A DNA stretch of 64,000 nucleotides from an uncultured archaeon (GTDB taxonomy: Archaea > Altiarchaeota > Altiarchaeia > JAFGQM01): the NCBI GenBank assembly GCA_964592405.1, contig CAZQBY010000005.1, positions 1 through 64,000 of the forward strand, in the 5' to 3' direction. The notes under the pieces were generated by a model. That model made no database searches. It worked only from the letters and a program-made list of their open reading frames with translations, and was not told where the DNA came from. Positions 372-16,794 of this stretch are shown one piece after another; within the stretch, counting starts at the first letter, position 1, and each line of letters opens with the position of its first letter. The position numbers and the translations under genes are program-made.

Positions 372-1538
372 ATGGGTGAAAATGCCAAGGAGGGTGGAAA
401 CTTCAGGGTTCTTTTCATAAGCTCATCTTCAAGGTTTCGATTGCCGGAGAGAAGGAGCGCCTACAGGAAGAAATTTAGGGGTCTCTCGAAGATAGGCGAT
501 ATGAATTATATAGCTGTCTCGGATGATGGGGGCAGAAGACACGCCTGTGTGGGGGCCATGGAGCTCCATTTGGCTCCCAAAACAGGATTTAAGCCCCTTG
601 ATGTGATGCTGTTCCTGATATTTGCCCTTTTGGAGGGGTTGAAAATCATCAGGAAACGCAGAATAAACATTATATATGCCCAATCCCCGTTGCTTGACGG
701 GTGCATAGGATGCCTTTTAAGAACCCTTACCGGTTGCAAACTGATAGTGGGTATCCATGGCGACTGGGCTGGTGAGATACAGTATTCCAAACCGGGGTTG
801 GCCAGGTTTCTGCCTCTGATAAATCTTATCGCCAAGATGGTTCTCAGGAATGCCGATGTCGTGAGAGTCATCTCAGAGGCCACTAAAAGGCGGGCTCTTG
901 AGTTTATCCAAAAGGACAAGATTTTTCCTGTCATGTTTCCTGCGTTTTTTGATGCGGAGTTCTTTCTGGAGAGGGAGATTAAACATCCCAAGGAGGACAG
1001 TGTGGTGTTCGTCGGATCCCTTATAGGAAGGAAGGGGGTCAAATATTTGCTGGGGGGGATTCGAACAGTAATCGCCGAGTATCCAAAATTTAGGTTATAT
1101 ATTTTAGGGAGGGGGAACAAAGAGGGTGAACTGAAAGATTTGTGCAGAAGACTTGGCATAGAGGATAATGTCCAGTTCCTTGGACACCAGCCAGCCGAAG
1201 TGGTGATGGAATATATTGACAGGAGTCTGGCACTGGTGCTGCCATCACTCTCAGAAGGGCTGGGGAGAGCTGCACTGGAGGCTATGGCTAGGGGAAGACC
1301 TGTAATAGGTTCGCGGGTAGAGGGTATACTGGAGACTGTGAATAATGACCGGGGGTATCTGATACCTCCAAAAGATTCAAACGCTATTTCCTCTGCTATT
1401 TTGAGTATTCTGAGAAACAAAGCGGAAGCTATGGATAAGGGCATGAAGGGGCGGGAGTATGTTGCGGGGGAATATTCGCTGGAGAAGTATCTGAACAACT
1501 ATAAGGAATTATTTCACTTCACCCTGAGGGATGCATGA
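372..1538 (+). CDS. Glycosyltransferase family 4 (GT-B)
   Basis: FVGSLIGRKG and LPSLSEGLGRAALEAMARGRPVI (EX7E) motifs. Confidence 0.9.
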   Translation: MGENAKEGGNFRVLFISSSSRFRLPERRSAYRKKFRGLSKIGDMNYIAVSDDGGRRHACVGAMELHLAPKTGFKPLDVMLFLIFALLEGLKIIRKRRINIIYAQSPLLDGCIGCLLRTLTGCKLIVGIHGDWAGEIQYSKPGLARFLPLINLIAKMVLRNADVVRVISEATKRRALEFIQKDKIFPVMFPAFFDAEFFLEREIKHPKEDSVVFVGSLIGRKGVKYLLGGIRTVIAEYPKFRLYILGRGNKEGELKDLCRRLGIEDNVQFLGHQPAEVVMEYIDRSLALVLPSLSEGLGRAALEAMARGRPVIGSRVEGILETVNNDRGYLIPPKDSNAISSAILSILRNKAEAMDKGMKGREYVAGEYSLEKYLNNYKELFHFTLRDA

Positions 1539-2641
1539 GATAACACATCCAGTGTCCGCTCCATAACTGTATCCCATGAGTGAGCCCTTACCTTTGTTTT
1601 GGCGGCTTTGATAAGCTTGTTTGAATTCCCTTCAACTGCCCTGATTATGGTGTTTCTTAGTTCCTCCTGATTTAGGGGCTCTATCAGGAATCCGGTTTTC
1701 TTGTTTTCTACCAGTTCGGGGTTACCGCACACATTTGTTGCCACTATGGGTGTCTGGAGGGCCATCGCCTCAAGGAGGACATGAGACATTCCCTCATAGA
1801 GGGAGTTTAGGACTAATACCCTAGCAGATGCTATTTTTTGTATGGTATCTTCATGAGAGAGATTACCAAAAAAATGGATTGTATGTGGGCACAGTTCTCC
1901 TGCCAAAGCTTCCAGCTCCGATCTGTATGGACCATCACCAACTATCCACAACTCCGCACCCGTCTTTTCCCATATCTGGGGCATTACTCTTATGAGTTCT
2001 TTGATGCCCTTCCACGGAACCAGCCGGGCTACAGTTATTATGGCGTTCTGTTTTGTTGGGTGTATTGCCTTTAGAGCAGCAAGGTCCACTGCATTCGGAA
2101 TGATAACTATCTTTTCTTTGGGAACATTGTGGTATTTCGTCAACATGCGGCTGAGGAAGTTACTGGGTGTTATTATCCGATCCGCATGCCTGAAGACAAA
2201 CCTCTCCACTCGGAGTATATTTCTGTTGGCATCAGGATTTTTCAGGAAGTCTTCAAGAAATTTTTTGGTCTTTCCCTCCCTGAAGGCCTTCTCCCAAGCC
2301 GTATCACCAACATATTTGACAATCACCGGTCTGCCGCAGAGTCTGCCAGCCAAGACGGACGGGAGACCTATTGCCGCAGGATTTTGGGCATATATAATGT
2401 CGCAGTGCCGGGCAGCTTTCAGTATGTTAATGAAGAGTGATAACTGCCGTAAAAGCTTGTTCCTAGAGCGCTTGATTTTTCTTATATCAATACCATTGGG
2501 TCTTTCAACTTCAGAATCTGCAAGTGTAATTACTGTGATTTTGTGGCCAAGAGCGGTGGCCCTCTTGGAGAACTCATAAGCATAGGTCGCCGGGCCAGCT
2601 GCCTCAGGTGGAAAGACAGAAGAGGTTATCAGTATTTTCAT
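1514..2641 (-). CDS. Glycosyltransferase family 4
   Basis: MKILIT..FPP..GPA N-terminus; VARLVPWKG; SLYEGMSHVLLEAMA; 3' end overlaps the convergent GT4 by 25 nt. Confidence 0.9.
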   Translation of the reverse strand: MKILITSSVFPPEAAGPATYAYEFSKRATALGHKITVITLADSEVERPNGIDIRKIKRSRNKLLRQLSLFINILKAARHCDIIYAQNPAAIGLPSVLAGRLCGRPVIVKYVGDTAWEKAFREGKTKKFLEDFLKNPDANRNILRVERFVFRHADRIITPSNFLSRMLTKYHNVPKEKIVIIPNAVDLAALKAIHPTKQNAIITVARLVPWKGIKELIRVMPQIWEKTGAELWIVGDGPYRSELEALAGELCPHTIHFFGNLSHEDTIQKIASARVLVLNSLYEGMSHVLLEAMALQTPIVATNVCGNPELVENKKTGFLIEPLNQEELRNTIIRAVEGNSNKLIKAAKTKVRAHSWDTVMERTLDVLSHASLRVK

Positions 2642-2652
2642 TTATTGATTGG

Positions 2653-3663
2653 TTATCCCCAGAGGGATTTGTTATCCAGTATCCAGTCATAGAGTATTTT
2701 GATGCCCTTTTCCTTGTCGACCTTTGGTTCCCAGCCAAAGGCTTTCTTGGCTTTTCTTATGTCGCTGTAGTAGACCTTCTGGTCGCCGGGCCTCCAGTCG
2801 GCAAATGGGACCTCTTTCTTCCTCCCGGTCAGCGTCTCCAGATATTCCAAGAGCTCCAGCAGGGAGATTGTATTCTCGGGCCCACCACCTATGTTGAATA
2901 TGTCGCCCTTGGTCTTGGATATCTTCTTGGTGGCCAGGTCAAAAGCGTTCACGAGGTCGGAGACGAAGAGTATGTCCCTTATCTGCCTGCCGTCGCCGTA
3001 TATCCTAAGAGGCCAGCCGAAGACGGATGCCAGTGTGAAATACGCCACCCAGCCCTGGTCCTCGGTCCCGAACTGGCGGGTTCCGTAGATGCAGGACATC
3101 CTGAATACCACACTCTTCAGCCCATATATGCGCGCATAGTCCCGCACGTATTGGTCAGCTGCACCCTTGGAGCATCCATAGGGAGAGTGGAAATCCAGTG
3201 GTTGCGATTCTGAAACTCCATGCGGGAGGCTTTCATAGTCGTAGCGCGACTCCTTCTCGACGACCTTTACGCCCTCCATGCCACCATAGACCTTGTTGGT
3301 GGAGGTGAAGATGATTATGGGGTCTGTCCTTGCAGCGCGCGCAGCCTCCAAGACGTTAAATGTCCCAAGAGCGTTTATCTCAAAATCCTCGCGCGGGTTC
3401 GCAACTGATGTTGTCACGGCGACCTGGCCCGCGGTGTGGTAGATAACATCGGCATTCTCCGCTGCTTTCCTTAAGGACTCGAAATCACGAGTATCTGCGC
3501 GCAATATATTGATTTCAGGGTGCCTCTCCTTAAGCCAGTTGGCGTTCTTTTCAACACCCCTTCGGGAAAAGTTATCATATACGGCCACCTCCTCGCCCCT
3601 GGAGAGGAAATGATCCGCCAGATTTGATCCTATGAAACCTGCACCACCGGTAATCAGAATCAT
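2653..3663 (-). CDS. NAD-dependent nucleotide-sugar epimerase/dehydratase (CDP-paratose 2-epimerase-like)
   Basis: ILITGGAGFIGS; STNKVYG; SPYGCSKG (YxxxK); QFGTEDQGWV. Start moved to the Met of MILITGG. Confidence 0.88.
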   Translation of the reverse strand: MILITGGAGFIGSNLADHFLSRGEEVAVYDNFSRRGVEKNANWLKERHPEINILRADTRDFESLRKAAENADVIYHTAGQVAVTTSVANPREDFEINALGTFNVLEAARAARTDPIIIFTSTNKVYGGMEGVKVVEKESRYDYESLPHGVSESQPLDFHSPYGCSKGAADQYVRDYARIYGLKSVVFRMSCIYGTRQFGTEDQGWVAYFTLASVFGWPLRIYGDGRQIRDILFVSDLVNAFDLATKKISKTKGDIFNIGGGPENTISLLELLEYLETLTGRKKEVPFADWRPGDQKVYYSDIRKAKKAFGWEPKVDKEKGIKILYDWILDNKSLWG

Positions 3664-3670
3664 GGTTGTT

Positions 3671-5707
3671 TTATATCTTATACAAATAAAAGGAGTCTCT
3701 TCCACTGTTGTCCTTGACTACTGAAAACAAAGACTCGTTTGATATGTTGACTCGATTTGTAGCGGATTTGAAATAAGCAAGGCGTTCATTTGCTAGTACT
3801 ACGGCCCAATCCCCATTTGGATAATCTGACAGGTTGCCCAAATGAACTCCCATTGACGCAAACCTTCCCGAGCGAGGCTTGCCATAATTGAGCTGCCAGT
3901 GTTTTCCTGTGAAATACCACTCCTTGGCAAGTGGGTTTATGCTCTCGTCAAGAAGTACGCGATCTCCTGGAGAGGCCACTTCCATGAGAAGGTTGGCCAT
4001 TTCAGAATAGCCATATTCTTCAGTGGCCTTCCTCGCAGATTTGGAGAACATCAGGCTAGGTTCTGGCAGAGTGGAACCACTTGTTCCCAATTCTCCAGAT
4101 GAGGATGGTATGAAGGTATAGGCTTCGGAGATGTGGGTATTGTAAGTAAAAAATGTAGAATATATTATTAGGGCAAGTAACAAAGCTGTTGATATTTTTG
4201 TTTTTATGGTAGATAGCGTCCAGATCGTCAACAAGACGAATGGGATAGTGAGGTGGGGGAGATAATAGGATCTGAATCCCTGCCTCCAGACCAGCAATAT
4301 ATTGAGCAAGAGGAATATTAACATCAGAAATGCGATGTCCCTGCCGCTTTCTTCTCCAAGCATTTCTTCCGTATATCCATTCCCACAGCAAAAACGCTTA
4401 TTGAAGAGCTTGGCGAAGGAGAGGAAAGCCCCACCTACAAAGAGTAGGAAGAGGGGGAGCGAATATTGGTCTGCTAGGAGATATATCAGGCCGGAGAGGT
4501 TTTCAAGGGAATAGGCACGACCGGGATAGTTTTGCAAGTCCTGGAGGTAAGCGTGCTCCAAGCCCAGTATCTTGGAGAAGGCTATGTCCATATATCCCGT
4601 CTTGATGTATGCGCCGATATTGAAAACTATCACCGGAGAGAAGACTACCAAGGCTATTATGCAGATAAATATGAAACGTCTTAAAAGGTCCCTCCTCTTG
4701 AAAATTATGAATACAAAGATTGTTGGGACTAAGACTATTGCAGGAAATTTTACTAGCATTGCCGCCCCCAGTGCTATGCCGGTAAGCAAGGCTCCGGAGT
4801 GGGGTGCGTTTTTGGCTTTACTGGAGGAGAATACAAATTTGTAGAATAGATAAAGGGTCAAAAGCATGAAAAAAACCAAGAATATCTCCCTGAGGAGTGT
4901 GCGGCTCATCCAGACTATGTAATTGGACGATGCGAAAATGCCGGCGGCTATCGAGGAGTTCAACTCGGATAGGAACTCCCTTGCAAAGATATAAAACAGC
5001 AAGACTGCCATAAACCCCGTCAGTGCGCTGGCGAATCTGAACATCCAAGGCTGCAGTTTGTAGAAACCTCCGGGCTCTAGTATTTGCATAGCTGCAAAGG
5101 TGTTATAAAGAGCAAGGGGGCTGTGATCCTTCTGGGAGATGAAGTATGCATCTCTCCCGGGCGTGTTGCCATCTACGAGATCATAGGCTTTGAACCCTAT
5201 GCTGTATTCATTTCCATAGATCTCTGCCCTTCCCAAGTTGTAGAAATTCAAAAACAGACTCAGAACCAGAATCGAGATTATGAACTTCTTGAGGCGGGCT
5301 TTTCGTTTTAGAGAAGGCAATACGTTTTTCAGGGTGAAAGAATCCTCCCGTCTCCATGCTGCAAGGAAACAAAACAGGATTGTCAAAAGTGTTAGAATCG
5401 ACAAAAAGCCTGTTAGGTGGGGGGAAAATGCGGCCTCTTTGCCCTCTAGGGCCACATTTAGGAAGCCCGCTGGATAATGGAGTATTAAGCTAAAGGCGAA
5501 AGAGAGGGTCAGCCTTTTAAAAATGCCTATGGGTTTTGATATGAAAACCAGAGTTAGGGGATACCCGGAGAGGAAGAAGGCGAAGAGAATGCCAAACACC
5601 CATAGGAGAGTCGTTATTCCTCCCAGTGCCGACAATATAGACAGCAGACCTATGCAAAATACCGAAAGCAGGTCTTTGTTCCTGATTAGTAAAAACATCA
5701 GTTCCAT
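3671..5707 (-). CDS. Polytopic membrane glycosyltransferase, GT-C fold (ArnT/PMT-like)
   Basis: More than 12 hydrophobic segments; HSPL, FRFASAL, LGAAMLVKF pattern of GT39/GT83-like proteins; beside GtrA and GT2 genes. Confidence 0.65.
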   Translation of the reverse strand: MELMFLLIRNKDLLSVFCIGLLSILSALGGITTLLWVFGILFAFFLSGYPLTLVFISKPIGIFKRLTLSFAFSLILHYPAGFLNVALEGKEAAFSPHLTGFLSILTLLTILFCFLAAWRREDSFTLKNVLPSLKRKARLKKFIISILVLSLFLNFYNLGRAEIYGNEYSIGFKAYDLVDGNTPGRDAYFISQKDHSPLALYNTFAAMQILEPGGFYKLQPWMFRFASALTGFMAVLLFYIFAREFLSELNSSIAAGIFASSNYIVWMSRTLLREIFLVFFMLLTLYLFYKFVFSSSKAKNAPHSGALLTGIALGAAMLVKFPAIVLVPTIFVFIIFKRRDLLRRFIFICIIALVVFSPVIVFNIGAYIKTGYMDIAFSKILGLEHAYLQDLQNYPGRAYSLENLSGLIYLLADQYSLPLFLLFVGGAFLSFAKLFNKRFCCGNGYTEEMLGEESGRDIAFLMLIFLLLNILLVWRQGFRSYYLPHLTIPFVLLTIWTLSTIKTKISTALLLALIIYSTFFTYNTHISEAYTFIPSSSGELGTSGSTLPEPSLMFSKSARKATEEYGYSEMANLLMEVASPGDRVLLDESINPLAKEWYFTGKHWQLNYGKPRSGRFASMGVHLGNLSDYPNGDWAVVLANERLAYFKSATNRVNISNESLFSVVKDNSGRDSFYLYKI

Positions 5708-5710
5708 CCC

Positions 5711-6172
5711 CTATCTGAAAGCCCAATATTTGCTACCCAGAAAATTTCCGAACAGCGCGACTAGTATTGCTATGATTTCCGCAAGGATATACCAGATTCC
5801 AAAGGTCTCTACAAGGAAGCCGAGCACGGAAAGGTTCAGAACATAAGTGGAAGCGCTCAGAAGAAGATATTTTGGGAGGGCATGATGATGCCTTCTAATT
5901 CCTAGAGTCTTAAAAGTCCACAGATGGTTTAGGGTATATCCGTTGATGGTCGATACAAAAAGCGCTATTGCGGCCGAATAGAGGTAATAGAGTCCCACGT
6001 ACTCTGTCAGGGAGTAGAGAAGGGTAAGGTTTATCATGGAGCTGACAGCCCCGACCATAATGAATTTGGTGAGTTGTATAAATCCAGGCCTGTGATATGG
6101 GAATGGCTTGCCCAGAGGTCCCAAAGCTTCAAAGAGTCTTACAATAAAGTCGGTCATCGCAAAATTCCGCAT
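5711..6172 (-). CDS. GtrA-family small membrane protein (putative lipid-linked sugar flippase)
   Basis: KFIMVG..., NGYTLNHLWTF, NFLGSKYWAFR; 4 TM segments. Confidence 0.85.
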   Translation of the reverse strand: MRNFAMTDFIVRLFEALGPLGKPFPYHRPGFIQLTKFIMVGAVSSMINLTLLYSLTEYVGLYYLYSAAIALFVSTINGYTLNHLWTFKTLGIRRHHHALPKYLLLSASTYVLNLSVLGFLVETFGIWYILAEIIAILVALFGNFLGSKYWAFR

Positions 6173-6196
6173 ATGTTGTTATTACCTGTTAAAAAG

Positions 6197-6862
6197 CTAA
6201 AGTCCTAATCGTATCTTGATCAGGGACAGCAACATCTTGGGGCCATGCATCAAGCTGAATTTTGAGCCCTCCTTGTGGCTCCAAGAGATGGGACTTTGCT
6301 CGATTCTGCAGCCGATTTCCCTAAGCCTCCATAAAAGCTCCACGTCGAACTCGAAGCCTGTGGACTTCATATGTGGGATTACCTTATTGATGCACTCTTT
6401 TTTGAATATTTTTGCTCCACATTGAGTATCTGGCAATTTTAGAGAGAACAGCAAGTTTACGCAAAGGTTGAAAATATGACTCATTATCCGGCGCTCTCTT
6501 GGCTGATGTCTGGTTATTCTCGATCCCTCCACTCGCCTAGAGCCTATGACAACGTCAGCTTCCTTTGTTTCCATGGTCTTTATGAGGTTCTTGAAATCAG
6601 TGGGTGACACGCTGCCATCCGAATCTACAAAACCCAAGATATCAAATCTAGCTACTTTGAATCCCTCAATCACTGCGCCGCCTTTACCCAGCCTTTTGTC
6701 GAAGTCTAAGACTCTTGCCCCTGCTTTTCGAGCAATCTCGGCCGTTCGGTCATCTCCATCGGCCACGATTATCAGCTCATCGGAAAGAGTCTTGTAATCC
6801 CTAATTACGCTGGATATCCTCTCCTCCTCATTGTATGCAGGGATAATCAATGATAGTTTCAT
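6197..6862 (-). CDS. GT2 dolichyl-phosphate hexosyltransferase (Alg5/AglJ-like)
   Basis: LIIPAYNEE, GKGGAV, DSD, DTQCGAK, FEFDVELL. Confidence 0.85.
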   Translation of the reverse strand: MKLSLIIPAYNEEERISSVIRDYKTLSDELIIVADGDDRTAEIARKAGARVLDFDKRLGKGGAVIEGFKVARFDILGFVDSDGSVSPTDFKNLIKTMETKEADVVIGSRRVEGSRITRHQPRERRIMSHIFNLCVNLLFSLKLPDTQCGAKIFKKECINKVIPHMKSTGFEFDVELLWRLREIGCRIEQSPISWSHKEGSKFSLMHGPKMLLSLIKIRLGL

Positions 6863-8040
6863 TTCAAGGCTGATTTGAATGTTTTAAGGTATCTTATAGC
6901 AGCCTTCTCCCATGTGTATTCTGATCTCACAAGCCTCTCACCGTTCTTTGCAATCCTCCCCCTGAGCTTCCTGTCCCTTATGAGCCTTGCAAGTGCCCCA
7001 GAAAGATGTTCTACATCCCTTGGCTTCACCAGCAGGCCGGTCTTACCCTCCATTATGAAATCGGTCATCCCCCCTACATTGGTCGTGACCACCGGCAGCC
7101 CGCATGCCATGGCCTCAAGGAACACTATACCCATTCCCTCATGGAGGGAAGGAAGGACAAATATGTCTGCAAGGTTGTAGTAGCGCATAAGGTTCTCGTT
7201 CGGGATTCTGCCCACGAAGACTACTCGTTCCGCTATGCCCAGCTTCCTGGAAAGCCTCACTAGGTTGTCCTTTTCAACACCGTCCCCTACCAGGAGCAGT
7301 TTCACATCGCTATTTAGTCCTGCCACCGCGCGCAGCAGGTAATCCAGCCCTTTCCTCCGGGATAGCCGGGAAACTGAAATCAAAACCGTCTTGTCCTCTA
7401 GGCCCAATTCCCTGATTAGTCTTTTATCTGGAGGGCTCCGGGAGAATTTGCTGACGCTGATTCCATAGGGGGTTAGAGTTACATTGTTCTTGCAACCTAG
7501 CGACTGCGCGCGCTTTATGGTGTCCGTGCTTATCGCGGTGAGTGTCGAATGGGAGAATATGTACCGATATGCAGGGCTTATGATTTTCCTGAAAAGGGAC
7601 ATGAAAAAGGGCTCCTGTGGGGTGTATAGGTCGCCCCCGACCAGTGTCGTCACGAGGGGCGTGGAGGTCAGCCTCGCCACTTTCATCGCAGGCAGACCGG
7701 CAGGTATTATGAACTGGGCGTTGATTACGTCAAATTTCTCCTGCTTAACGAGCTTGAGAAGTGGTAGCTGCGATGCAAGCATGAAATAGGTCATGGCCAT
7801 GGAGGATAGAAGCTTGCTCTTCCTTTGGGGGCTCCTGTAGGGCCCTAGGAAGGGGTTCCCCACAATGCGATGGACCTTGACGCCATCCATCACCTCATGG
7901 CGCTTCAGCCCCTCAAAACATGTCGTCGCCACGTGGACCTCATGGCCCATAGAGGCGAGGGTTCTGGCCAGCTCGAACGCCCCCTGCTCCCCTCCGCCAG
8001 TCACAGGAGGGAACATGTATATCACCATCAGTATCTTCAT
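6859..8040 (-). CDS. Glycosyltransferase family 4
   Basis: FPPVTGGGE; SRLSRRKG; PSLHEGMGIVFLEAMACG. Confidence 0.9.
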   Translation of the reverse strand: MKILMVIYMFPPVTGGGEQGAFELARTLASMGHEVHVATTCFEGLKRHEVMDGVKVHRIVGNPFLGPYRSPQRKSKLLSSMAMTYFMLASQLPLLKLVKQEKFDVINAQFIIPAGLPAMKVARLTSTPLVTTLVGGDLYTPQEPFFMSLFRKIISPAYRYIFSHSTLTAISTDTIKRAQSLGCKNNVTLTPYGISVSKFSRSPPDKRLIRELGLEDKTVLISVSRLSRRKGLDYLLRAVAGLNSDVKLLLVGDGVEKDNLVRLSRKLGIAERVVFVGRIPNENLMRYYNLADIFVLPSLHEGMGIVFLEAMACGLPVVTTNVGGMTDFIMEGKTGLLVKPRDVEHLSGALARLIRDRKLRGRIAKNGERLVRSEYTWEKAAIRYLKTFKSALK

Positions 8041-9191
8041 TTTTCCAGCGTGCTCTCATACACTTTGATGAAGCTTTTGATGCGCTTTCCGACACTTAGA
8101 TTATCCTCAGCGAACTCTCTCGCTTTCCTGCCCATGCGCGCGCATGTGGCCGGGCTGTCCAGAAGTTTTTGGATGTTGTAGGCAAGGGCTTCCGGGCTTT
8201 TGGGCTCAACAAGTATGCCGGTGTCTCCCGACACCAGCTCCGGATTGCCGCCGACGTTGGTAGCTATAACAGGCTTGCCGCATGCCATAGCCTCCATTAT
8301 GGAGCGGCTCATACCTTCAGCCAGGGAAGGAAGAACAAAGATATCACATGCGTTGTAGGCTGCTGGCATCTTCGCATAGGGGAGGTAGGGTATCACGCTT
8401 ATCCGGCTCCTGAGGGCTTGGTTGCGCGCGAGCCAGTCTTTGACCAGGTGCTCGTCAAAGCCGCCGCCCAGCAGCAATAGGTGCGCGCCCTTTACAGCCC
8501 TGAATGCCTCCAGAAGATATGGAAGGCCCTTCTCCTCGACGAACCTGCCGGTGTAGAAGACAATTGGGCCTTTGATGTCTAGGCCTAGCTCGGCGCGCGC
8601 ATCCCTTTTTGGTATGTTGGGGCTGAATAATTTGGTGTCCACGGCATTGGGTATCGCAATCACTTTCTCTTTTGGGGGATTGTACCTCTCAAGCACCTCC
8701 CTCCGAAGGGCGTGGGAATCGCATGTTATGACATCCGCACCCTTCACGACCTTGCCCTCTATCAGCCTTGCCAGTGCACGCGTATAGAAGCGCTGGCGCA
8801 CGCTTGCCCACGGACCGTGGAGGGTCATGACATGTGGGATCGCAAATCTCTTTGAGAGCTTGCATCCTGTCAAACCGGCGACCGGGTTGTGGGTGTGGAG
8901 TATGTCAAATTCTTTCTCAGCCAAGAGGCGCTTGCACTCCTTGGTGGCTGGGAGGTAGTGGGTTATCTTGCTCTCGCGGAAGCCCAGGTTGTAGAATTTG
9001 GTGCGGTGAATGGGAAAATCATAGAGCTCGCCGGTTATCTCAGGTTCCAAACGAGTTACTACCTCAATATCAAACCCCTCCTTGCTGAGGCCCTCAGCCA
9101 GCTGAGCTATGCACGCGCCTCCGCCGCCCTGAGTAATGGCACCCTCTTTGGCCTGATAGGGAAAATCAGTAGAAACAAAGAGAACCCTCAT
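8037..9191 (-). CDS. Glycosyltransferase family 4
   Basis: GRFVEEKG; PSLAEGMSRSIMEAMACG. ATG at 9191 preferred over TTG at 9212, which overlaps the upstream gene. Confidence 0.88.
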   Translation of the reverse strand: MRVLFVSTDFPYQAKEGAITQGGGGACIAQLAEGLSKEGFDIEVVTRLEPEITGELYDFPIHRTKFYNLGFRESKITHYLPATKECKRLLAEKEFDILHTHNPVAGLTGCKLSKRFAIPHVMTLHGPWASVRQRFYTRALARLIEGKVVKGADVITCDSHALRREVLERYNPPKEKVIAIPNAVDTKLFSPNIPKRDARAELGLDIKGPIVFYTGRFVEEKGLPYLLEAFRAVKGAHLLLLGGGFDEHLVKDWLARNQALRSRISVIPYLPYAKMPAAYNACDIFVLPSLAEGMSRSIMEAMACGKPVIATNVGGNPELVSGDTGILVEPKSPEALAYNIQKLLDSPATCARMGRKAREFAEDNLSVGKRIKSFIKVYESTLEK

Positions 9192-9198
9192 GGGGATA

Positions 9199-10488
9199 TT
9201 AGATTCGCTCAAGTAAAAAACCCTTCTTGGAGGCCTTTTTCTGGTCTATCAAGCCCCGGGAGTCCACAATCGCTTTCGTTCTCATGTTTTCGGCGCAGAT
9301 GTCCAGGTCCAGATTTTTGAACTGGGTGTGGTCTGAATGTATTATAATGCAGTCGGAGTCTTTTATCGCCTCGTCAAATCCTTCTATGCGGACACCCCAA
9401 TCTTCGATCTCTCTTTCCTCGACCAAAGGGTCGTGAACAAAGACCTTCGCGCCCCGCTTTTTGAGCTCCTCGCAGATCCTCCCGGCAGGGCTCTCTCGCG
9501 CATCCCCGACATTCCCCTTGTATGAGGCGCCTAAGACGGTCACCTTCTTGCCCACGAGGTCTTTCAGCATCCTCTGGCAAAGATTCACCACATGAATAGC
9601 CATGTAATCGTTGACATCCCTGCCAGCTGTTATTATTTTGGGGTCATAACCCAGCTCTCTGGATTTGTAAACTAAATAATAGGGGTCCACCGGAAGACAG
9701 TGTCCTCCAACACCCGGTCCGGGCCAGTAGATGTGGAAGTTCCACTTGGTTGCTGCGGCCTTTATAACCTCTCGTGTATCAATACCCATCCTGTCAAATA
9801 TCAGTGCCAGCTCATTCATCAGACCTATATTCAGGTCGCGTTGCGTATTTTCGATGACCTTTGCGGCCTCTGCAGTTTTGATGCTGCTGACCTTTATGAC
9901 TTGTTCCCTGCTTATCTTGGAGTACATGCCTGCAGTTATTTCCAGCCATTTTTCGTTTATTGCGCCGACAATTCGCTTTATGTTTTTGATTGTATGTTTT
10001 TTGTCTCCCGGATTATATCTCTCCGGACAATAGGCCAGACCAAAATCACTGCCAGCCCTGAGGCCTGTCCTCTCTTCAATTATTGTTTGCACTATCTCTT
10101 CTGTAACTCCGGGATAGACTGTACTCTCAAGAACTACAAGTGTGTCTCTCTTTATTCCCTCTGCAACAGCTTCTGCTGCACCCCGCACTGCGCGCAGATC
10201 GGGTTTTTTGTCGCTGGTAAGTGGTGTGGGCACTGTAATCAATACTGCATCCGAATGCCTAACCGCCTGTGGAGTATCTGTTGTGAAGGCTATTTTGTTT
10301 GCATCCAGCAATTTCTGTATGCGCTCGTCCGTGATTATCTCTGGTATAGGGGAACGGCCATCATTTAATTTGCTCACCCGCTCACTATTTATATCCGAGC
10401 CAGTCACATCATAGCCGGCCTCTGCAAAAGCCATGGCTGTTGGCAGACCGACATACCCGATTCCGACAACACAGATTCTCTTTATCAT
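9199..10488 (-). CDS. UDP-N-acetylhexosamine 6-dehydrogenase (WecC/WbpA family)
   Basis: VGIGYVGLP; LESTVYPG; PER; KVIENTQRD; GVGGHCLPVDP with catalytic Cys; DARESP. Confidence 0.9.
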   Translation of the reverse strand: MIKRICVVGIGYVGLPTAMAFAEAGYDVTGSDINSERVSKLNDGRSPIPEIITDERIQKLLDANKIAFTTDTPQAVRHSDAVLITVPTPLTSDKKPDLRAVRGAAEAVAEGIKRDTLVVLESTVYPGVTEEIVQTIIEERTGLRAGSDFGLAYCPERYNPGDKKHTIKNIKRIVGAINEKWLEITAGMYSKISREQVIKVSSIKTAEAAKVIENTQRDLNIGLMNELALIFDRMGIDTREVIKAAATKWNFHIYWPGPGVGGHCLPVDPYYLVYKSRELGYDPKIITAGRDVNDYMAIHVVNLCQRMLKDLVGKKVTVLGASYKGNVGDARESPAGRICEELKKRGAKVFVHDPLVEEREIEDWGVRIEGFDEAIKDSDCIIIHSDHTQFKNLDLDICAENMRTKAIVDSRGLIDQKKASKKGFLLERI

Positions 10489-11399
10489 AGGGATAGTTTT
10501 GAGCAGTAGTCAATATATTCTTTAAGCCCCTCTTCCAGAGAATATTGAGGCTGCCATCCGAGTTTCTTTTTGGCTCTTGAGATGTCAGCCAGGGAGTGCT
10601 TCACATCGCCCTTCCTCTCCTCCGCGTGTATTATATCGGAGCTGGAGCCGGTTAGTTCTATTATCTTCTCTGCAAGCTCGTTTATCGTTATTCTCCTACC
10701 TCCCGCTATGTTGTATATGCCGGATTTGCCGGCGGCCTTTTTGTTGGCTTCGACGACATCCTTCACATATGTGAAATCCCTTGTCTGCTCTCCGTCGCCA
10801 TAGATGGTCAAAGGCTCGCCTTTCATTGCCGCCTTGACAAACTTGGGTATCACGGCCGAATACTCGGAATCGGGATTCTGCCGGGGGCCGAAGACGTTGA
10901 AATAACGAAGCGAGACGGCCTTCAGGCCATAGAGCTCGCTGAAGACCCTCGTGTAGTGCTCCCCAATGAGCTTGCTTACTGCGTATGGGCTCTTGGGGTT
11001 CGGCTCCATGGTTTCGACCTTTGGCAAGGTGGGGGTATCGCCGTAGACAGATGAGGAGGAAGCATAAACCACATTCCTGACTCCTGTGTCTCTGCAGGCT
11101 ATTAGGAGTGTGAGGGTCCCGCCTATATTTGCATGGTTGCTGCGTATTGGGTCCCTGATACTGCGTGGAACGCTGGGTATCGCAGCCTGATGGTAGACGG
11201 TCTCAACACCATCCAAAACCTTCTTCATCAGATGCAAATCATTGACACTTCCCTTTATAAATCTGATTCCGGAGTTTTTGATAAATTCAATACTGTATCT
11301 GTTCGCCGTGGACAGATCATCAACCACAATAACATCGTCAAGCGACTCCGCCAGATTTGATCCTATGAAACCGGCACCACCCGTTATTAGGACTACCAT
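10485..11399 (-). CDS. NAD-dependent epimerase (WbpP-like UDP-GlcNAc 4-epimerase)
   Basis: TGGAGFIGS; AAIPSVPRSI; ASSSSVYG; SPYAVSK; LRYFNVFGPRQ. Confidence 0.88.
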   Translation of the reverse strand: MVVLITGGAGFIGSNLAESLDDVIVVDDLSTANRYSIEFIKNSGIRFIKGSVNDLHLMKKVLDGVETVYHQAAIPSVPRSIRDPIRSNHANIGGTLTLLIACRDTGVRNVVYASSSSVYGDTPTLPKVETMEPNPKSPYAVSKLIGEHYTRVFSELYGLKAVSLRYFNVFGPRQNPDSEYSAVIPKFVKAAMKGEPLTIYGDGEQTRDFTYVKDVVEANKKAAGKSGIYNIAGGRRITINELAEKIIELTGSSSDIIHAEERKGDVKHSLADISRAKKKLGWQPQYSLEEGLKEYIDYCSKLSL

Positions 11400-12376
11400 A
11401 TCAAAACTGCTAAAACTGCCAGAAGAGCCTCGAGAGATACCAGAACGGATACGAGGGTTCTTTCAGTTATCCCCCCGGTCAGGCGCATTATCAGGCTCGG
11501 CAGGCCTACAACCCTTGGGGCAGTCAGCTTTCCGTTTTTGAGGCTGATTATATCAATCTCCCGCGGAAAGCCTTTCCTAGCCTTGAGGATAAAATCAATG
11601 AGATATGGGGTCATTAACAAAAGGCCGGCTGTCTCAAAGTTGCCTATTATTATTGAGGAGGATATGCAGGCTCCTATGCTCAGGGTGCCGACGTCGCCGG
11701 GGAGGATTCTGGCCGGATATTTATTAAATAAGAGAAATGCGAAAAGTGCACCTGACATGGAAAGTAGAAGGACTGCTGCATCAAAACATCCTCTGTTAAG
11801 GGCTATTATACCTAGTGACAAACATGCCATAAGCCCCATCCCTGACTCAAGGCCGTTGAAGCCTGCCAGCATGTTGGTCAGGTTGGAAACCACGGTTACG
11901 GCTATGGGTATGAGCAGAAGGGGATATATTACCGGAAGGTATAACTGACCCAGGACAGGGAGGCTTATGTATGGATAGCCGGCAGCTACTGCAACCAGTG
12001 GAAGTGAGGCAAAGATTGGCAGTGCTGCCTTTATTGTCTGCCTTATTCTTATAAGATCATCCAGAATTCCAATAACCGTTATTGTGAGTATTGTACTTAT
12101 GGCTGCAAATATCTCCGTCAGGTTTGAGAATTGGACAAATGATTTATCTGAAACCAGGCTGCTGTGCATAAGGGTGGTGATTGCTATTGCAGAGAGCGTT
12201 CCTGCGACAAAGCCGGCCACCACTGCCAGCCCGCCCATCTCAGGGAGTTTTGGTTTGTCAGGTTTGTTTATGTCCCTCCCCACTATACCGGCATCTGAGA
12301 ATTTCCTGATAAATTCTGGTATGGAAAGAAACGCCACAAGGAATGACACTACTGACACAACGAGAACAAACAGCAT
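11393..12376 (-). CDS. aglH: UDP-GlcNAc:dolichol-phosphate GlcNAc-1-phosphate transferase (MraY/GPT family)
   Basis: D.NK, PEMGG, GILDD, NMLAGFNGLE, NKYPARILPGDVG; directly downstream of aglB. Confidence 0.8.
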   Translation of the reverse strand: MLFVLVVSVVSFLVAFLSIPEFIRKFSDAGIVGRDINKPDKPKLPEMGGLAVVAGFVAGTLSAIAITTLMHSSLVSDKSFVQFSNLTEIFAAISTILTITVIGILDDLIRIRQTIKAALPIFASLPLVAVAAGYPYISLPVLGQLYLPVIYPLLLIPIAVTVVSNLTNMLAGFNGLESGMGLMACLSLGIIALNRGCFDAAVLLLSMSGALFAFLLFNKYPARILPGDVGTLSIGACISSSIIIGNFETAGLLLMTPYLIDFILKARKGFPREIDIISLKNGKLTAPRVVGLPSLIMRLTGGITERTLVSVLVSLEALLAVLAVLIW

Positions 12377-12404
12377 TTTGGTAGATTTGTAAAGAAGTGG
12401 AAGG

Positions 12405-15400
12405 TTAGATTGAGACTAGTGAATTTGCACTGCAATAGCTCTCATCTCCAACGCAGTAGTATGAAATGTTAACATAATCGCCGAACTCCTCAGCAAGCTG
12501 ATCCAGCAACGGCTTCTGTTCCTCACACACTGGACAGACCTTTGTATAAAAGACCTGCAGAAGGGATCTGTTCTCCCCGGGGGCGCATGGAGTTGTGTTG
12601 TCAAGCTTTTTAATGGTTCGGAGAACCCCGGTTATATTCAAATCAGCAGTGATGCTCCCGTCAGAGTATGTGATACCCAGAGGCTCACATATCTCCTTCG
12701 GCTCCGCCTTGTTGAGTATGCATGTTATCTTTCTGAGGACATCCATCTCAAGCTCTGGATCTGACATCTTGGCTATCTTCTTGTACTGGCAGTTCCAGAC
12801 TATGGAGGGGAAGTTGTTTAGATTGTAGGTTTCCGGAAGGGAGGGGTCATAGTAATCAAATGTTATGTTAATGGTTTTCTCATCCTCCTCTGGGACAGGC
12901 ATCTTCTCACCATTCAGGCTAACCAGTGTTATCTCGAATATCAGAGTCTTGCCAGCCAGAGGATTGTCTGTCCCGGTTCCATAGGCCTGCTCCGGTGGTA
13001 TTGTAACCAGTTTTGACTCGCCAAGTTTCATTCCCACAACCGCATCTTCAAAGCCCGGGATCACCTGGCCGGCTCCGATTGTGAATTGTAGTGGTTCACG
13101 CCCCAGTGAGCTGTCAAAGACTGTGCCGTTTTCAAACTTGCCGACATACTCAACTTCCACAATATCACCCATCTTGGCCACTGGTTCGGTTTCTGTTTCA
13201 CCCTGCCCCATTTCCTGCTCTTGGGATTCTGTTTCTTCTTCAGTCTTGGGAATCTCATCAGGATATGTAACTTTATATATCTTCACGCTGGGATAAAAGA
13301 GTTTTGTCTTGTCATCGGTGACCAGAGTGAAATATTTTAGATTCTTGGCATCAAAGAGATAGAGTTGGGTGAACATCGCGTTCATCCATCTCTCAGGCAC
13401 GTGGATGAATATCTGTGGGGCAATGACATCTTCGCTCAGGCGCTGGCCATACCGCATGTTTATCAAGGCATCCTTTCCTGATGCCATAACCTCATTGTAA
13501 TCCTTTAGTTCACAGTTACTGGATATGAATTTGAGATCCTGCGAGCCATCAGAATACATACGTACTATAAATGCGGGGTAGTCGCCGCCATCAGCATATC
13601 TGAGTCCGCTGAATCCTGTATATAAATAGGTTCGTATAGCCGTCTTGCGCTGACCATTCTCCGGGAAGATCACCGGCTTTAGCGAAGTTGAGTAGGCAGG
13701 CTTGCATGCATAGCCTTTGGTATTGAGCTGATACTGACCGTAGACAGCCTGCCCCGGCCTTCGCAATATCTTGGCAGATCCGCCCTTGTTTACTATGACA
13801 TGCCAGTCAAGGGAGCTGTTGCAGCATTTGGTTGGGTTTTCCTCACAACACATCTTTTTCTCAACCTGAGTCAGTAGGTCTCTGGTGCAGACCACACCCT
13901 GACTGCAGACATACTTACCCTTCTTTTTCTCTGCTACAAGACCGTTCTCAACATTCTGGCATATCTCACCAACCTCGCAAGTGCCATTGACAGCAGTATA
14001 ACCATTTGGGTATTGGTAGTAGTTCGTTCCCAAAAAGGAAAGTGCTCCCGACTTCCCTATGAGTGAGTAATCGAGTATTACATACTTTACCTTGTGCCCG
14101 CCGTCAGGATCTTTTGGATTCCACGGCTGTTCCATAAGCCATTGCATGGCCTCATCCTCAGATGTTGTGTTGTAGAAAAAGCGGGCTATGCGCATTATAT
14201 ACTCCTCCCCGGCCTGTAGCGGATCAGCTATTACTGTTGCTCTTGAAAGGGCGGTTATGAAGTGTCCATAGTCCCACCAGGTAAGGACATAATCGCCGTT
14301 TATGTATTTATCGCCAATATATGCTCCGGGCCTGATGTGCTCATCCAGCCACTTGACGCCCAAAAACCATGCAGGGTCAACGGGTGCGGGTATCTTTGTC
14401 CGTTTCCACGCATCAGAATTATTATATGGATAAAAGATTGTGAAGGGTATCACTACCATGACTACAAGGAGGGTTATGACCTTCCAGCTGCCCATCTCCT
14501 TCCAGTTGTTTGGAAGCATAAGTCCTATCATGGAGCCTAGAAGGAGGAAGCCCAGACTCTGTGAGAAGGTCAGTCTTGCCTCAACCCAGACAAACTGCAT
14601 GGCTACTAGGAAGAAGATCAGGCATATCAGATATGCGCGCAACAGTTCGAACATACGATCCCGATCTTTAAAGAAGTAGTATAACAGGAATACGGGTACT
14701 AGAACTGCCATTATAACTGTAAGAGGCTCTGCTATGTGGTATTTGGTGTATCCTGTGGTCAGCTTCTTTATAAGGTCCCCCCTTGCTAGAGCTGCCTGCT
14801 CGGAGATTGTCTTGTCCACAAGAAAGTTGTGGGCCGATGTGCCGGCAAATTCTTCAAATGCCTTTTGGGGAACACTCAAGATGCGGTCTATGCCAATGGC
14901 AAAAAGGGCGATAAGGGTCGCGATTATAACTATGGCTGCAAATTGAGTAAAATATCTTTTCTCAAGCCCATGCTTGGTATCCTCCTTTTTCCAGATGCGG
15001 ATACGGATAAGCTCGGCAAGCACCCCCATAAAGAGCATAAAGCCGTATGGCCCAATCTGGGTAACATCTATATGGAAATTTGTTAGGAAAACCAGATTGC
15101 CTGCTATTGGTATCGCACCCGCAATGATGGCTGCACGAATAGTCCGCCAGATGTCATACTTTAGGAGTATGCTGAAGATTGAGTAAATTCCTAGGGCTGT
15201 AAATGGTATTGCAAATAGGAAGACTACTCCCTTCCAGCTTACAATAGTAATAAAAAAGGCCACTCCAGAGAGGACGGCATATTTTGTGTTTTCCCTTCCA
15301 TCGGATTTCATCGCCTTGGCCAGTAGGTAAAGTGAGAATATGCCCAGAACCATCCCCATGAGATCCTCTTCTATCGCCCCTGCAACAGATTTTGTCAGCA

Positions 15401-16163
15401 GAGCCGGCATGGTGGCGAAGAAGAGGCCTCCAAACATGCCGCTCTTCCAGTCACCTGTCAGCTCCTTGATGAAGAAGAACATCATGACGGCGCCGAAAGC
15501 AGATATAAGGAGGGGGTAGAGGATTGTTATATCGCGTATTGGATTTCCTGTCATGAGGGCAAGGTAGGTATTGTAGTAATATGGAAATTTGTGGGGCGCT
15601 GCCCTACCATGTGGCGGGTATATGGTGAAATCTATACGGGGTATGGTCCCCATCTCATAGAGTTTCTCTGTCTGTTTGTAATGATAGTAGGGATCATCCA
15701 TGGATATTAAGTGGCCGGGCATCGGGCCCGAGCCCGGCAGGGCTGGATAAACCCGGAAGAGTATGGCAGTTACGGCCAGTACCATCACTACTGCTGTCTG
15801 CGGTTTTATTATCCTGCCTGCCACCAGTGCTGAAAGCGCCATATATGCTGTAAGCAATAGTATGAGGAGGGTGTCGCCGGGGATTTTGAAAATCACGGCG
15901 ATTAGGGCAACTCCCATGAGGGCCGGCAGGACATTCCACTTGTCTTTCTTGAATCCACTAAAACTTGAGATGGAGAGGTAAGCTAGAAAGCCTGTTGAGC
16001 CAATGACTATCAGGTTGAAAAGTAGTTTGGTTACATCATGTCTTATTAGGAGGCTTACCAGTAGGAAGATTGTGAGGGAGATGATGATGAGGAGGTGTGG
16101 TGAGTCTTCAAGTTTTTTTGATATCTCCTGCATTATGTCTTCCGCTTTCCTATTCTCTGCCAT
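12405..16163 (-). CDS. aglB: Oligosaccharyltransferase AglB (STT3) with C-terminal FKBP PPIase and thioredoxin-like CxxC domains
   Basis: DPYYH, TISE (TIXE) and WWDYG motifs after many TM helices; FKBP motif VEYVGKFENGTVFDSS..GQVIPGFEDAV..IPPEQAYG; C-terminal FYTKVCPVCEEQ. Start probably MAENRK (16163). Confidence 0.88.
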   Translation of the reverse strand: MAENRKAEDIMQEISKKLEDSPHLLIIISLTIFLLVSLLIRHDVTKLLFNLIVIGSTGFLAYLSISSFSGFKKDKWNVLPALMGVALIAVIFKIPGDTLLILLLTAYMALSALVAGRIIKPQTAVVMVLAVTAILFRVYPALPGSGPMPGHLISMDDPYYHYKQTEKLYEMGTIPRIDFTIYPPHGRAAPHKFPYYYNTYLALMTGNPIRDITILYPLLISAFGAVMMFFFIKELTGDWKSGMFGGLFFATMPALLTKSVAGAIEEDLMGMVLGIFSLYLLAKAMKSDGRENTKYAVLSGVAFFITIVSWKGVVFLFAIPFTALGIYSIFSILLKYDIWRTIRAAIIAGAIPIAGNLVFLTNFHIDVTQIGPYGFMLFMGVLAELIRIRIWKKEDTKHGLEKRYFTQFAAIVIIATLIALFAIGIDRILSVPQKAFEEFAGTSAHNFLVDKTISEQAALARGDLIKKLTTGYTKYHIAEPLTVIMAVLVPVFLLYYFFKDRDRMFELLRAYLICLIFFLVAMQFVWVEARLTFSQSLGFLLLGSMIGLMLPNNWKEMGSWKVITLLVVMVVIPFTIFYPYNNSDAWKRTKIPAPVDPAWFLGVKWLDEHIRPGAYIGDKYINGDYVLTWWDYGHFITALSRATVIADPLQAGEEYIMRIARFFYNTTSEDEAMQWLMEQPWNPKDPDGGHKVKYVILDYSLIGKSGALSFLGTNYYQYPNGYTAVNGTCEVGEICQNVENGLVAEKKKGKYVCSQGVVCTRDLLTQVEKKMCCEENPTKCCNSSLDWHVIVNKGGSAKILRRPGQAVYGQYQLNTKGYACKPAYSTSLKPVIFPENGQRKTAIRTYLYTGFSGLRYADGGDYPAFIVRMYSDGSQDLKFISSNCELKDYNEVMASGKDALINMRYGQRLSEDVIAPQIFIHVPERWMNAMFTQLYLFDAKNLKYFTLVTDDKTKLFYPSVKIYKVTYPDEIPKTEEETESQEQEMGQGETETEPVAKMGDIVEVEYVGKFENGTVFDSSLGREPLQFTIGAGQVIPGFEDAVVGMKLGESKLVTIPPEQAYGTGTDNPLAGKTLIFEITLVSLNGEKMPVPEEDEKTINITFDYYDPSLPETYNLNNFPSIVWNCQYKKIAKMSDPELEMDVLRKITCILNKAEPKEICEPLGITYSDGSITADLNITGVLRTIKKLDNTTPCAPGENRSLLQVFYTKVCPVCEEQKPLLDQLAEEFGDYVNISYYCVGDESYCSANSLVSI

Positions 16164-16794
16164 TCTCCAGTAGTTCAGAGATGTCTTGTATAACCCTCTC
16201 GGGTTTCTCAACCTTCAAGACATCACTGTTATATTTGTTGAGCATGAATACTGTGTGGCAACCTGCAGCCCTGCCGGCCATGATATCATATATAGTGTCC
16301 CCGACAAAGACCGCCTCGCTAGGTTCAGTCCTCAGGACATGCAAGGCATTGGTCACCGGCTCATGGTGAGGCTTCTTGTTTTTTGCATCTTCCTCACCTA
16401 TTAGAACATCAAAATAGTGATATATTCCGGTCTGTTGTAGTGTCTCATAAACAACATCGCGCGGTGAGGTACTGACCACCCCAAGCTTGCAACCCTTTCT
16501 CTTTAAGCGTTTTAAAGTTAGAGGAACATTCTTAAAAACCTTGACCTCCCGGAGGTTGCGCAGCCAGTATCTCTCGAAGTCCTTGAGAAGTTTCTTGTGT
16601 TCCTCTCCAGTAGCTACACCAAGTAAGCGGGATATTGTAGAATCAACAGGCTTGCCAAAAAGTTTCTTGTCAAATTCCTGTTTTGTCAGCATTCTTTTCC
16701 TGTTCTGCTTGAGGGCCGCATTGAATGATTTATAGATTAGATCAAAAGTATCTACTAATGTACCATCCATATCAAAGAGAAAGGCTTTATACAT
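16150..16794 (-). CDS. HAD-superfamily hydrolase (PpaX/phosphoglycolate phosphatase-like)
   Basis: FDMDGTLVDT, KP.HEP, VGDTIYDI..GRAAG. Confidence 0.88.
   Translation of the reverse strand: MYKAFLFDMDGTLVDTFDLIYKSFNAALKQNRKRMLTKQEFDKKLFGKPVDSTISRLLGVATGEEHKKLLKDFERYWLRNLREVKVFKNVPLTLKRLKRKGCKLGVVSTSPRDVVYETLQQTGIYHYFDVLIGEEDAKNKKPHHEPVTNALHVLRTEPSEAVFVGDTIYDIMAGRAAGCHTVFMLNKYNSDVLKVEKPERVIQDISELLENGRE

Follow-up and report, generated by a model that had tools for sequence, protein, structure and literature searches.

The catalytic core of the eukaryotic oligosaccharyltransferase is usually modelled on AglB, which works as a single subunit, and the accessory oxidoreductase subunits of the eukaryotic enzyme are usually regarded as eukaryotic additions. 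These subunits, Ost3/Ost6 and TUSC3/MagT1, present a thioredoxin domain of classical order followed by four membrane helices. The CVVC motif of MagT1 is needed for cysteine-proximal sequons in human cells (PMC4137057). Here, an archaeal AglB was analysed whose chain continues at its C-terminus into an FKBP-type domain and a cysteine-rich tail bearing a CPVC motif, the latter being most likely a circularly permuted thioredoxin-like domain. Its gene is located at 12405-16163 on the minus strand of a stretch of 64,000 nucleotides (hereafter the window, meaning the whole stretch of DNA that was analysed) belonging to an uncultured archaeon of the Altiarchaeota (contig CAZQBY010000005.1, assembly GCA_964592405.1). 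With modest confidence, the protein is interpreted as an AglB that carries, outside the cytoplasmic membrane, two tethered foldase modules working on substrates where these are glycosylated.

To begin with, the open reading frame (ORF) listing and its translation gave a minus-strand frame covering 12405-16211 and encoding 1268 aa from a TTG codon, from which the residues are numbered throughout (TTG as residue 1, ATG as residue 17). The gene was taken as 12405-16163 (-), encoding 1252 aa, because the orthologues start in register with the ATG at 16163 (residue 17, MAEN...). The original prediction, which had been made from the letters alone, claimed a single continuous ORF over this interval, and the gene proved to be intact, with coordinates that fit the orthologue starts. 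The motifs that it named (DPYYH, TISE, WWDYG and FYTKVCPVC) were all found where it had placed them, as was the FKBP domain, expected at about 12910-13180 and located there by Pfam as a canonical FKBP_C (Table 1). Such a long frame might instead have arisen from a chimeric assembly or from read-through between separate genes, an explanation whose probability is practically negligible. The junctions between the domains were crossed, with 0 indels, by contigs of four runs from four studies (Logan; region 12300-16300), corresponding to vent and marine metagenomes, one of which may be the source sample. In particular, one contig covered 12300-14492 and spanned the tail, the FKBP domain, both linkers and WWDYG, while the 13 substitutions found among the covering contigs created no stop codons; thus, neither a stop nor a frameshift separates the domains, in agreement with the prediction. 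None of the nine runs listed was an RNA run. Furthermore, the architecture recurs in assemblies that are independent of one another and come from several sources. An end-to-end alignment was obtained for nine full-length proteins, each from a different cluster, with the linkers in frame in all nine, and a further four proteins from the database, 1257-1277 aa long, covered 88-100% of the FKBP domain plus tail at 45-59% identity. The assembly artefact was rejected because of this recurrence and the indel-free contigs across the junctions, and the fusion is genuine.

The core of the protein belongs to AglB/STT3, and its identity as an oligosaccharyltransferase is predicted from the family model and the motifs. 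The Pfam STT3 model (PF02516) matched with 51.4 bits against a cut-off of 24.5, while the NCBIfam archaeo_STT3 model matched from residue 140 onwards (E 1.7e-31) with 109 bits, which lies under its 450-bit subfamily cut-off; weak matches of the Pfam AglB-core models appeared around WWDYG. The solved chains that were matched comprised A. fulgidus AglB-L (3waj, 5gmy and 7e9s), AglB C-terminal domains (3vu0 and 3vgp) and human STT3A (6s7o). WWDYG (residues 645-649, 14265-14279) is invariant in nine orthologues and aligns with the WWDYG of 3vu0, 3vgp, 3waj and 6s7o. Moreover, DPYYH occupies residues 173-177, within DDPYYH, and TISE residues 468-471, with D172, D173, T468, I469 and E471 invariant in the nine orthologues; these two are candidates for the acidic DxD-type motif of the first external loop and the TIXE/SVSE-type motif of loop 5, as they are named in the AglB/PglB structure literature.

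Regarding the topology, hydropathy revealed many hydrophobic segments up to residues 572-597 and none beyond; therefore, the residues from about 600 onwards all lie on one side of the membrane. The WWDYG domain comes after the last of these segments, as expected for the outward-facing domain of AglB/STT3, and the catalytic domain, the cysteine-rich region, the FKBP domain and the tail are all on the outer side of the membrane. This is also where the cysteines are found: 18 of the 19 in AglB fall in residues 745-1260, each kept in 8-9 of the nine orthologues, those of the family-specific insertion (residues 731-820) included. Comparison with 42 Altiarchaeota AglB without the fusion, which end at about residue 985 of the fused protein, showed that their C-terminal regions are homologous to residues 821-985 (hhalign probability of 97.6%, E 3.8e-12). 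Hence, the parts specific to the family are the insertion and the series formed by linker, FKBP domain, linker and tail. No match to residues 731-985 was found by sequence in the PDB (best E 0.31). At the opposite end of the chain, the N-terminal extension (residues 17-139) had no Pfam match and none to PF04756 at E<=10, and these searches gave no evidence of homology between its four helices and the membrane part of Ost3/6, an idea that was rejected. The frames of other Altiarchaeota AglB likewise begin about 130-180 residues ahead of the core match. Besides, sequons are conserved in the outer domains of AglB itself, N681 in eight and N1028 in seven of the nine orthologues, followed by N1214 and N1115 (12867-12869, where the tail begins) with six each; judging from these sites, AglB may glycosylate itself.

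The FKBP domain was recognized by Pfam FKBP_C with an E of 1.1e-25 and 90.3 bits (cut-off 21.1) over profile positions 5-94 of 94, and it gave full-length colinear alignments with solved FKBPs (best E 8.5e-37), so that a peptidyl-prolyl isomerase activity is predicted for it. The two linkers flanking the domain vary in both length and sequence, which fits flexible tethers. The sole other FKBP of the genome presents neither a signal nor a membrane segment at its start, and it carries an insert presumably typical of cytoplasmic archaeal FKBPs. Standalone FKBP frames of 107 and 98 aa, 65-70% identical to the FKBP domain of AglB, were observed in two related genomes (L150, G005:C1:178372-178656, and L149, G007:C78:2067-2339, respectively); in G005, the frame is located about 5 kb from an aglB that carries the FKBP domain.

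The tail, of about 150 residues, contains eight cysteines. Two of them form the CPVC motif (C1226/C1229, 12525-12536) within FYTKVCPVC (residues 1221-1229, 12525-12551), and the other six are C1141, C1164, C1175, C1209, C1253 and C1260; the cis-Pro candidate is P1135 (12807-12809). A Pfam thioredoxin (PF00085) match of any kind at E<=0.1 was obtained for only 5 of 16 aligned tails, and OST3_OST6 (PF04756) gave no match at E<=1 on the whole protein or at E<=10 on the tail. When a profile of the 16 tails was searched against the PDB sequences, the best match was the 85-residue thioredoxin 1fo5_A (E 3.6e-7), in two swapped pieces: tail positions 165-202 corresponded to residues 3-40 of the chain, and positions 73-98 to residues 46-71. 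The tails were also compared by hhalign with a classical thioredoxin profile built from 30 thioredoxins of relatives. The CxxC half (1213-1247) aligned with thioredoxin positions 16-50 (probability of 95-96%, E 1e-9 to 4e-8) and the cis-Pro half (1122-1138) with positions 60-76 (E 1e-5 to 9e-5), P1135 falling on the cis-Pro of thioredoxin, and 0 of 100 column shuffles reached the score of either half. Both halves are homologous to thioredoxin, one corresponding to the segment in which a beta strand leads into the helix headed by CxxC, and the other to the cis-Pro loop that precedes beta3. However, the canonical order beta1-alpha1-beta2-alpha2-beta3 is not observed, as the cis-Pro/beta3 segment appears about 90 residues before the CxxC segment. 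Since the tail has neither this order nor a score reaching the family cut-off, it was placed in the thioredoxin superfamily as a putatively permuted variant. The thioredoxin fold proposed for the CxxC region has therefore been borne out by profiles as a relationship to thioredoxin, but not as a standard domain, given the swapped halves and the six extra conserved cysteines.

A classical-order counterpart of the tail is encoded in the same genome, namely the second thioredoxin domain of a DsbA-like protein (L012:1715-2986), which is a genuine thioredoxin relative according to a PDB profile search. A profile of 17 sequences of this domain matched both halves of the tail with their order swapped, including a cysteine upstream of beta1, another directly after beta3 and then a (K/Q)Y(K/Y)(K/R)(I/V)G motif; the single sequence of the domain matched only the CxxC half of the tail profile (probability of 21%). 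Furthermore, in two standalone relatives of the tail (P0041 and P0050), the Pfam matches came in swapped order, with the C-terminal part of DSBA/Thioredoxin_3 matched first and the N-terminal part of Thioredoxin_2 after it. On the basis of these profile alignments, the tail most likely derives by circular permutation from the extracytoplasmic thioredoxin domain of this lineage, perhaps through duplication and trimming, with the most likely order of helix, cis-Pro, beta3, beta4, helix, insertion, beta1, CxxC helix and beta2, and it is probably held together by three extra disulfides. Both orders stand side by side in a single chain in a metagenomic protein of 410 aa (P0040), where a lipoprotein-like signal is followed by a classical CPHC thioredoxin domain and then by a permuted CPFC domain of the tail type. 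Besides, one homologue of the classical-order domain (L127, G031:C22:29223-29582) had one in-frame TAG inside the match. A classification of thioredoxin-like folds reportedly deals with circular permutations. No natural permuted thioredoxin was found in the literature searched, which excluded subscription journals and supplements, and the string 'permut' occurs 0 times in the 2009 thioredoxin-fold atlas (PMC2757866).

Relatives of the tail were searched among 1.84 billion representatives, and 45 proteins were found at E<=1e-3, 25 of them at E<=1e-10. They fell into four groups: AglB fusions, membrane-anchored proteins of about 300-510 aa with the tail at the C-terminus, fragments and three standalone proteins. 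Conservation was then compared among 37 distinct tails, of which 17 were linked to AglB, 17 belonged to paralogues and three were standalone. All 37 kept P1135 and five of the cysteines, while 34 kept C1164. The two motif cysteines were present in every AglB-linked tail (15 as CxxC and 2 as CxxxC), while the paralogue tails had CxxC (11), SxxC (2) or SxxS (4), and the standalone forms carried CPFC or CPAC. The six degenerate paralogues constitute one subgroup on the tail tree, with a support of 94 in the approximate likelihood ratio test (SH-aLRT). Because they keep the six other cysteines, the scaffold of the tail appears to have a use without CxxC; from these sequences, it would be able to serve without the motif, yet the copy linked to AglB has retained it. 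Overall, the mean pairwise identity was 0.41 for the tail, 0.54 for the core, 0.58 for the FKBP domain and 0.22-0.29 for the linkers.

One of the paralogues is encoded in the same genome (L012:3165-4697 (-), G000:C2), presenting a single membrane anchor, a domain of about 200 aa without any family match (no Pfam match was found for this N-terminal domain) and a tail with SQAC. It is located directly upstream of the DsbA-like protein (L012:1715-2986 (-)), which is membrane-anchored and combines a CPFC DsbA domain with the CPHC thioredoxin domain of classical order described above. The two genes are adjacent in four genomes (G000, G002, G004 and G005). The Pfam matches in the neighbourhood of the standalone relatives corresponded to housekeeping genes only, and a scan of the genome contigs with a single tail returned 96 pattern matches, none of which was a relative.

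The genome (1.13 Mb, 87% complete) had a single STT3 match. Hidden Markov models of the core, the middle region, the FKBP domain and the tail were run over 79 AglB loci from species genomes, and the middle region and the tail were found in six of them (L013-L018), four of which also had the FKBP domain, while the remaining Altiarchaeota AglB had none of these three parts. Among the 61 genomes of the phylum, full-length matches to the tail appeared only in eight genomes of one family (f1), and elsewhere only the generic CxxC half was matched. In seven of the eight, the tail ends the AglB frame, and the assembly of the eighth (G007) contained no AglB. The architecture is thus confined to one Altiarchaeota family, in agreement with the rarity that had been anticipated. 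Likewise, no AglB/STT3 fusion with an FKBP or thioredoxin domain was found in the searchable literature, with subscription journals and supplements outside its scope, in line with the earlier remark that no description of the architecture was known. Of the proposed chain of three modules, STT3 and the CxxC tail turned out to be constant, but the FKBP domain is dispensable, as two of the six species lack it. In the AglB-core tree, the two FKBP-less proteins are nested in the fused clade, with moderate support for the fork (86/82), and a loss of the FKBP domain is therefore favoured. In the favoured interpretation, two modules (FKBP domain and tail), joined by acidic and presumably flexible linkers, were added after the ancestral C-terminus, at about residue 985, in one family.

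The possible substrates were approached through the proteome, obtained with greedy ORF calls and divided into an exported class, with a single N-terminal hydrophobic segment, and a comparison class without any segment. The cysteine content was 2.50% in the exported class vs. 1.30% in the proteins with no segment, and even numbers of cysteines were found in 67 of 104 exported proteins vs. 281 of 610 (Fisher P-value of 6e-4). Sequons were also more frequent in the exported class (1.38 vs. 0.36 per 100 aa). Within six residues of a cysteine there were 181 of the 606 exported sequons (0.299, with a shuffled mean of 0.241) and 135 of the 767 in the no-segment proteins (shuffled mean of 0.161). These figures fit the formation of disulfides in the envelope, with many sequons proximal to cysteines, the setting for which human cells need the CVVC motif of MagT1 (PMC4137057). 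Only one DsbA-like gene was found in the genome.

If the two modules act as tethered foldases, exported, unfolded and cysteine-rich proteins would meet glycosylation, prolyl isomerisation and disulfide handling in one place, coupled within one chain. The tail would adopt a thioredoxin fold and be redox-active, and its CxxC would make transient mixed disulfides with the cysteines of the substrate, or oxidise them. Cysteine-proximal sequons would thereby stay accessible until glycosylated by AglB, in parallel to what is done by MagT1 as a separate subunit, and the FKBP domain would then accelerate prolyl isomerisation or hold the chain. A more specific proposal, put forward tentatively and as the less probable of the two, is that this Altiarchaeota family independently reached a coupling like that of Ost3/Ost6/MagT1, in which a redox-active permuted module in cis would allow cysteine-proximal sequons to be glycosylated before disulfides lock, in an anaerobic vent organism without recognisable DsbB/VKOR.

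Several observations weigh against the action of the modules as foldases. The tail scored under the Pfam thioredoxin cut-off (PF00085, 15.2 vs. 23.5 bits, over profile positions 18-53 of 103), and both the thioredoxin fold and the permutation are deduced from sequence profiles, with an hhalign probability of only 60-83% for the cis-Pro half. The FKBP domain is absent in frame from two of the six species (L014 and L016), and the standalone relatives were not beside an AglB core in the five metagenome loci found, so that these neighbourhoods lend no support to a form with separate subunits. Moreover, the excess of sequons near cysteines is small (0.299, when the shuffles had their 95th percentile at 0.278 and reached 0.304 at most), and the exported set comes from a crude hydropathy rule applied to crude ORF calls. 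Other points would be expected if the tail were instead a redox-inactive structural or binding module stapled by disulfides (e.g. an envelope anchor or a substrate holder) with CxxC as a fourth structural disulfide, an explanation that is held to be rather unlikely. Thus, DsbB, VKOR, DsbD/CcdA and MauE, which could recycle the CxxC, were not found in the 87%-complete genome; the dipeptide between the motif cysteines is variable, the spacing is CxxxC in 2 of the 17 AglB-linked tails, and 6 of the 17 paralogues lack one or both motif cysteines while retaining the other six, so that the non-motif cysteines and P1135 are kept more strictly (34-37 of 37) than CxxC. An inactive tail would also agree with its evolving faster than the core and the FKBP domain, as seen in the identities above. 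In contrast, the retention of both motif cysteines in 17 of 17 AglB-linked tails, with the losses among paralogues confined to a single subgroup, argues for a selected motif pair, the invariant proline aligns with the cis-Pro of thioredoxin, and the standalone relatives carry CPFC or CPAC motifs like those of DsbA and glutaredoxin.

The modules might also act in cis, folding the cysteine-rich outer domain of AglB itself (10 cysteines in residues 745-900), which is regarded as improbable. The insertion, the FKBP domain and the tail are indeed all restricted to the same family, and the conservation of the insertion cysteines in 8-9 of the nine orthologues would suit such a role. However, both FKBP-less species retain the cysteine-rich insertion, the tail is also carried by an unrelated membrane-anchored paralogue that has no insertion, and a permanent catalytic domain would be costly for one folding event. 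Taken together, the tethered foldases acting on substrates at the glycosylation site remain the favoured interpretation, at the modest confidence given at the outset.

Table 1. Features of the fused aglB gene and its surroundings in the window (residues counted from the TTG start).
Feature	Position	Strand	Basis or remarks
Whole gene: AglB/STT3 with C-terminal FKBP domain and putative permuted thioredoxin-like tail	12405..16163	-	Stop codon 12405-12407
N-terminal extension, ~4 hydrophobic segments, residues 17-139	15795..16163	-	Hydropathy; ahead of the canonical STT3 start
STT3/AglB membrane core and catalytic central core, residues 140-730	14022..15794	-	Pfam, STT3A/AglB alignments, invariant columns in 9 orthologues
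Family-specific cysteine-rich insertion, residues 731-820, 9 Cys	13752..14021	-	Absent from other Altiarchaeota AglB
Ancestral AglB C-terminal peripheral domain, residues 821-985	13257..13751	-	hhalign against non-fused AglB
Linker 1, acidic, variable	13179..13256	-	Length of 13-34 aa among the 9 orthologues; pairwise identity of 0.29 on average
FKBP-type peptidyl-prolyl isomerase domain, residues 1012-1097	12921..13178	-	Pfam FKBP_C
Linker 2, variable	12870..12920	-	Length of 4-25 aa among the 9 orthologues; pairwise identity of 0.22 on average
Tail, putative circularly permuted thioredoxin fold, residues 1115-1262	12426..12869	-	Profile comparisons
HAD-family hydrolase gene	16150..16794	-	Pfam; upstream of aglB in L013-L018
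Glycosylation gene cluster beside aglB	372..12376	all - except the GT1 gene 372-1538	Pfam

With respect to the surroundings of the gene, the adjacent cluster encodes glycosyltransferases of families GT4 (AglH-like), GT1 (four genes) and GT2, two epimerase/dehydratases, a UDP-glucose dehydrogenase, GtrA and PMT_2, the product of the last being of the membrane glycosyltransferase type. Together with aglB and the HAD hydrolase gene, it extends over about 16 kb (372-16794) and comprises at least 13 glycosylation-related genes. The HAD gene overlaps the start of aglB by 14 bases, and the two are probably in the same operon. The order ABCE1 / HAD-AglB-GT4-epimerase-UDP-glucose dehydrogenase-GT1 is conserved in six related loci as far as the contigs reach, with the conserved stretch running from GT4 through the epimerase and UDP-glucose dehydrogenase to two GT1 genes; no counterparts of GT2, GtrA and PMT_2 were matched in those six loci.

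Should the more specific proposal of a coupling like that of Ost3/Ost6/MagT1 be true, eukaryotes would not have been alone in linking N-glycosylation to oxidative folding, and the family of the tail would represent extracytoplasmic oxidoreductases of a new class. A one-chain enzyme would open to direct testing the long-standing question of how glycosylation competes with folding and disulfide formation, since only one polypeptide would have to be truncated or mutated at its CxxC, and a compact enzyme for both glycosylation and folding may be of interest for glyco-engineering. Moreover, the results point to a small family, not described so far, of thioredoxin domains that are apparently circularly permuted, with AglB-fused, paralogous and standalone members, and suggest a disulfide chemistry of the envelope in a lineage where DsbB/VKOR were not found.

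Compared with the known systems, the protein shares with archaeal AglB, eukaryotic STT3 and bacterial PglB the multi-span membrane core, the outward WWDYG domain and the location of its gene in a glycosylation cluster, and it differs from them in having the N-terminal extension of about four segments, the nine-cysteine insertion, the FKBP domain and the permuted tail. An STT3 core with a C-terminal outward FKBP domain is also found in P0009 (1020 aa, 24% identical overall), which lacks both the tail domain and the cysteine-rich insertion. With the small archaeal thioredoxins 1fo5_A and 1nho_A, the tail shares the beta1-CxxC-helix and cis-Pro-beta3 segments, but in the tail the segments are swapped, with about 45 residues inserted between them and four more cysteines; the cysteines upstream of beta1 and right after beta3 are shared between the tail and the classical domain of the lineage (L012:1715-2986). 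As in DsbA and protein disulfide isomerase, the tail would be an extracytoplasmic CxxC domain of the thioredoxin superfamily, and its relatives had weak Pfam matches to DSBA, Thioredoxin_2 and Thioredoxin_4; unlike DsbA, it has no helical insertion, and no DsbB/VKOR partner was found in the genome. Finally, as in Ost3/Ost6 and TUSC3/MagT1, a CxxC module of the thioredoxin type is placed on the outer (lumenal-equivalent) side beside the STT3 catalytic subunit, although those are separate subunits, while the tail is fused at the C-terminus, apparently permuted and provided with six extra cysteines. The likeness to Ost3/Ost6 would be one of function by analogy, not of membership in the OST3/OST6 family.

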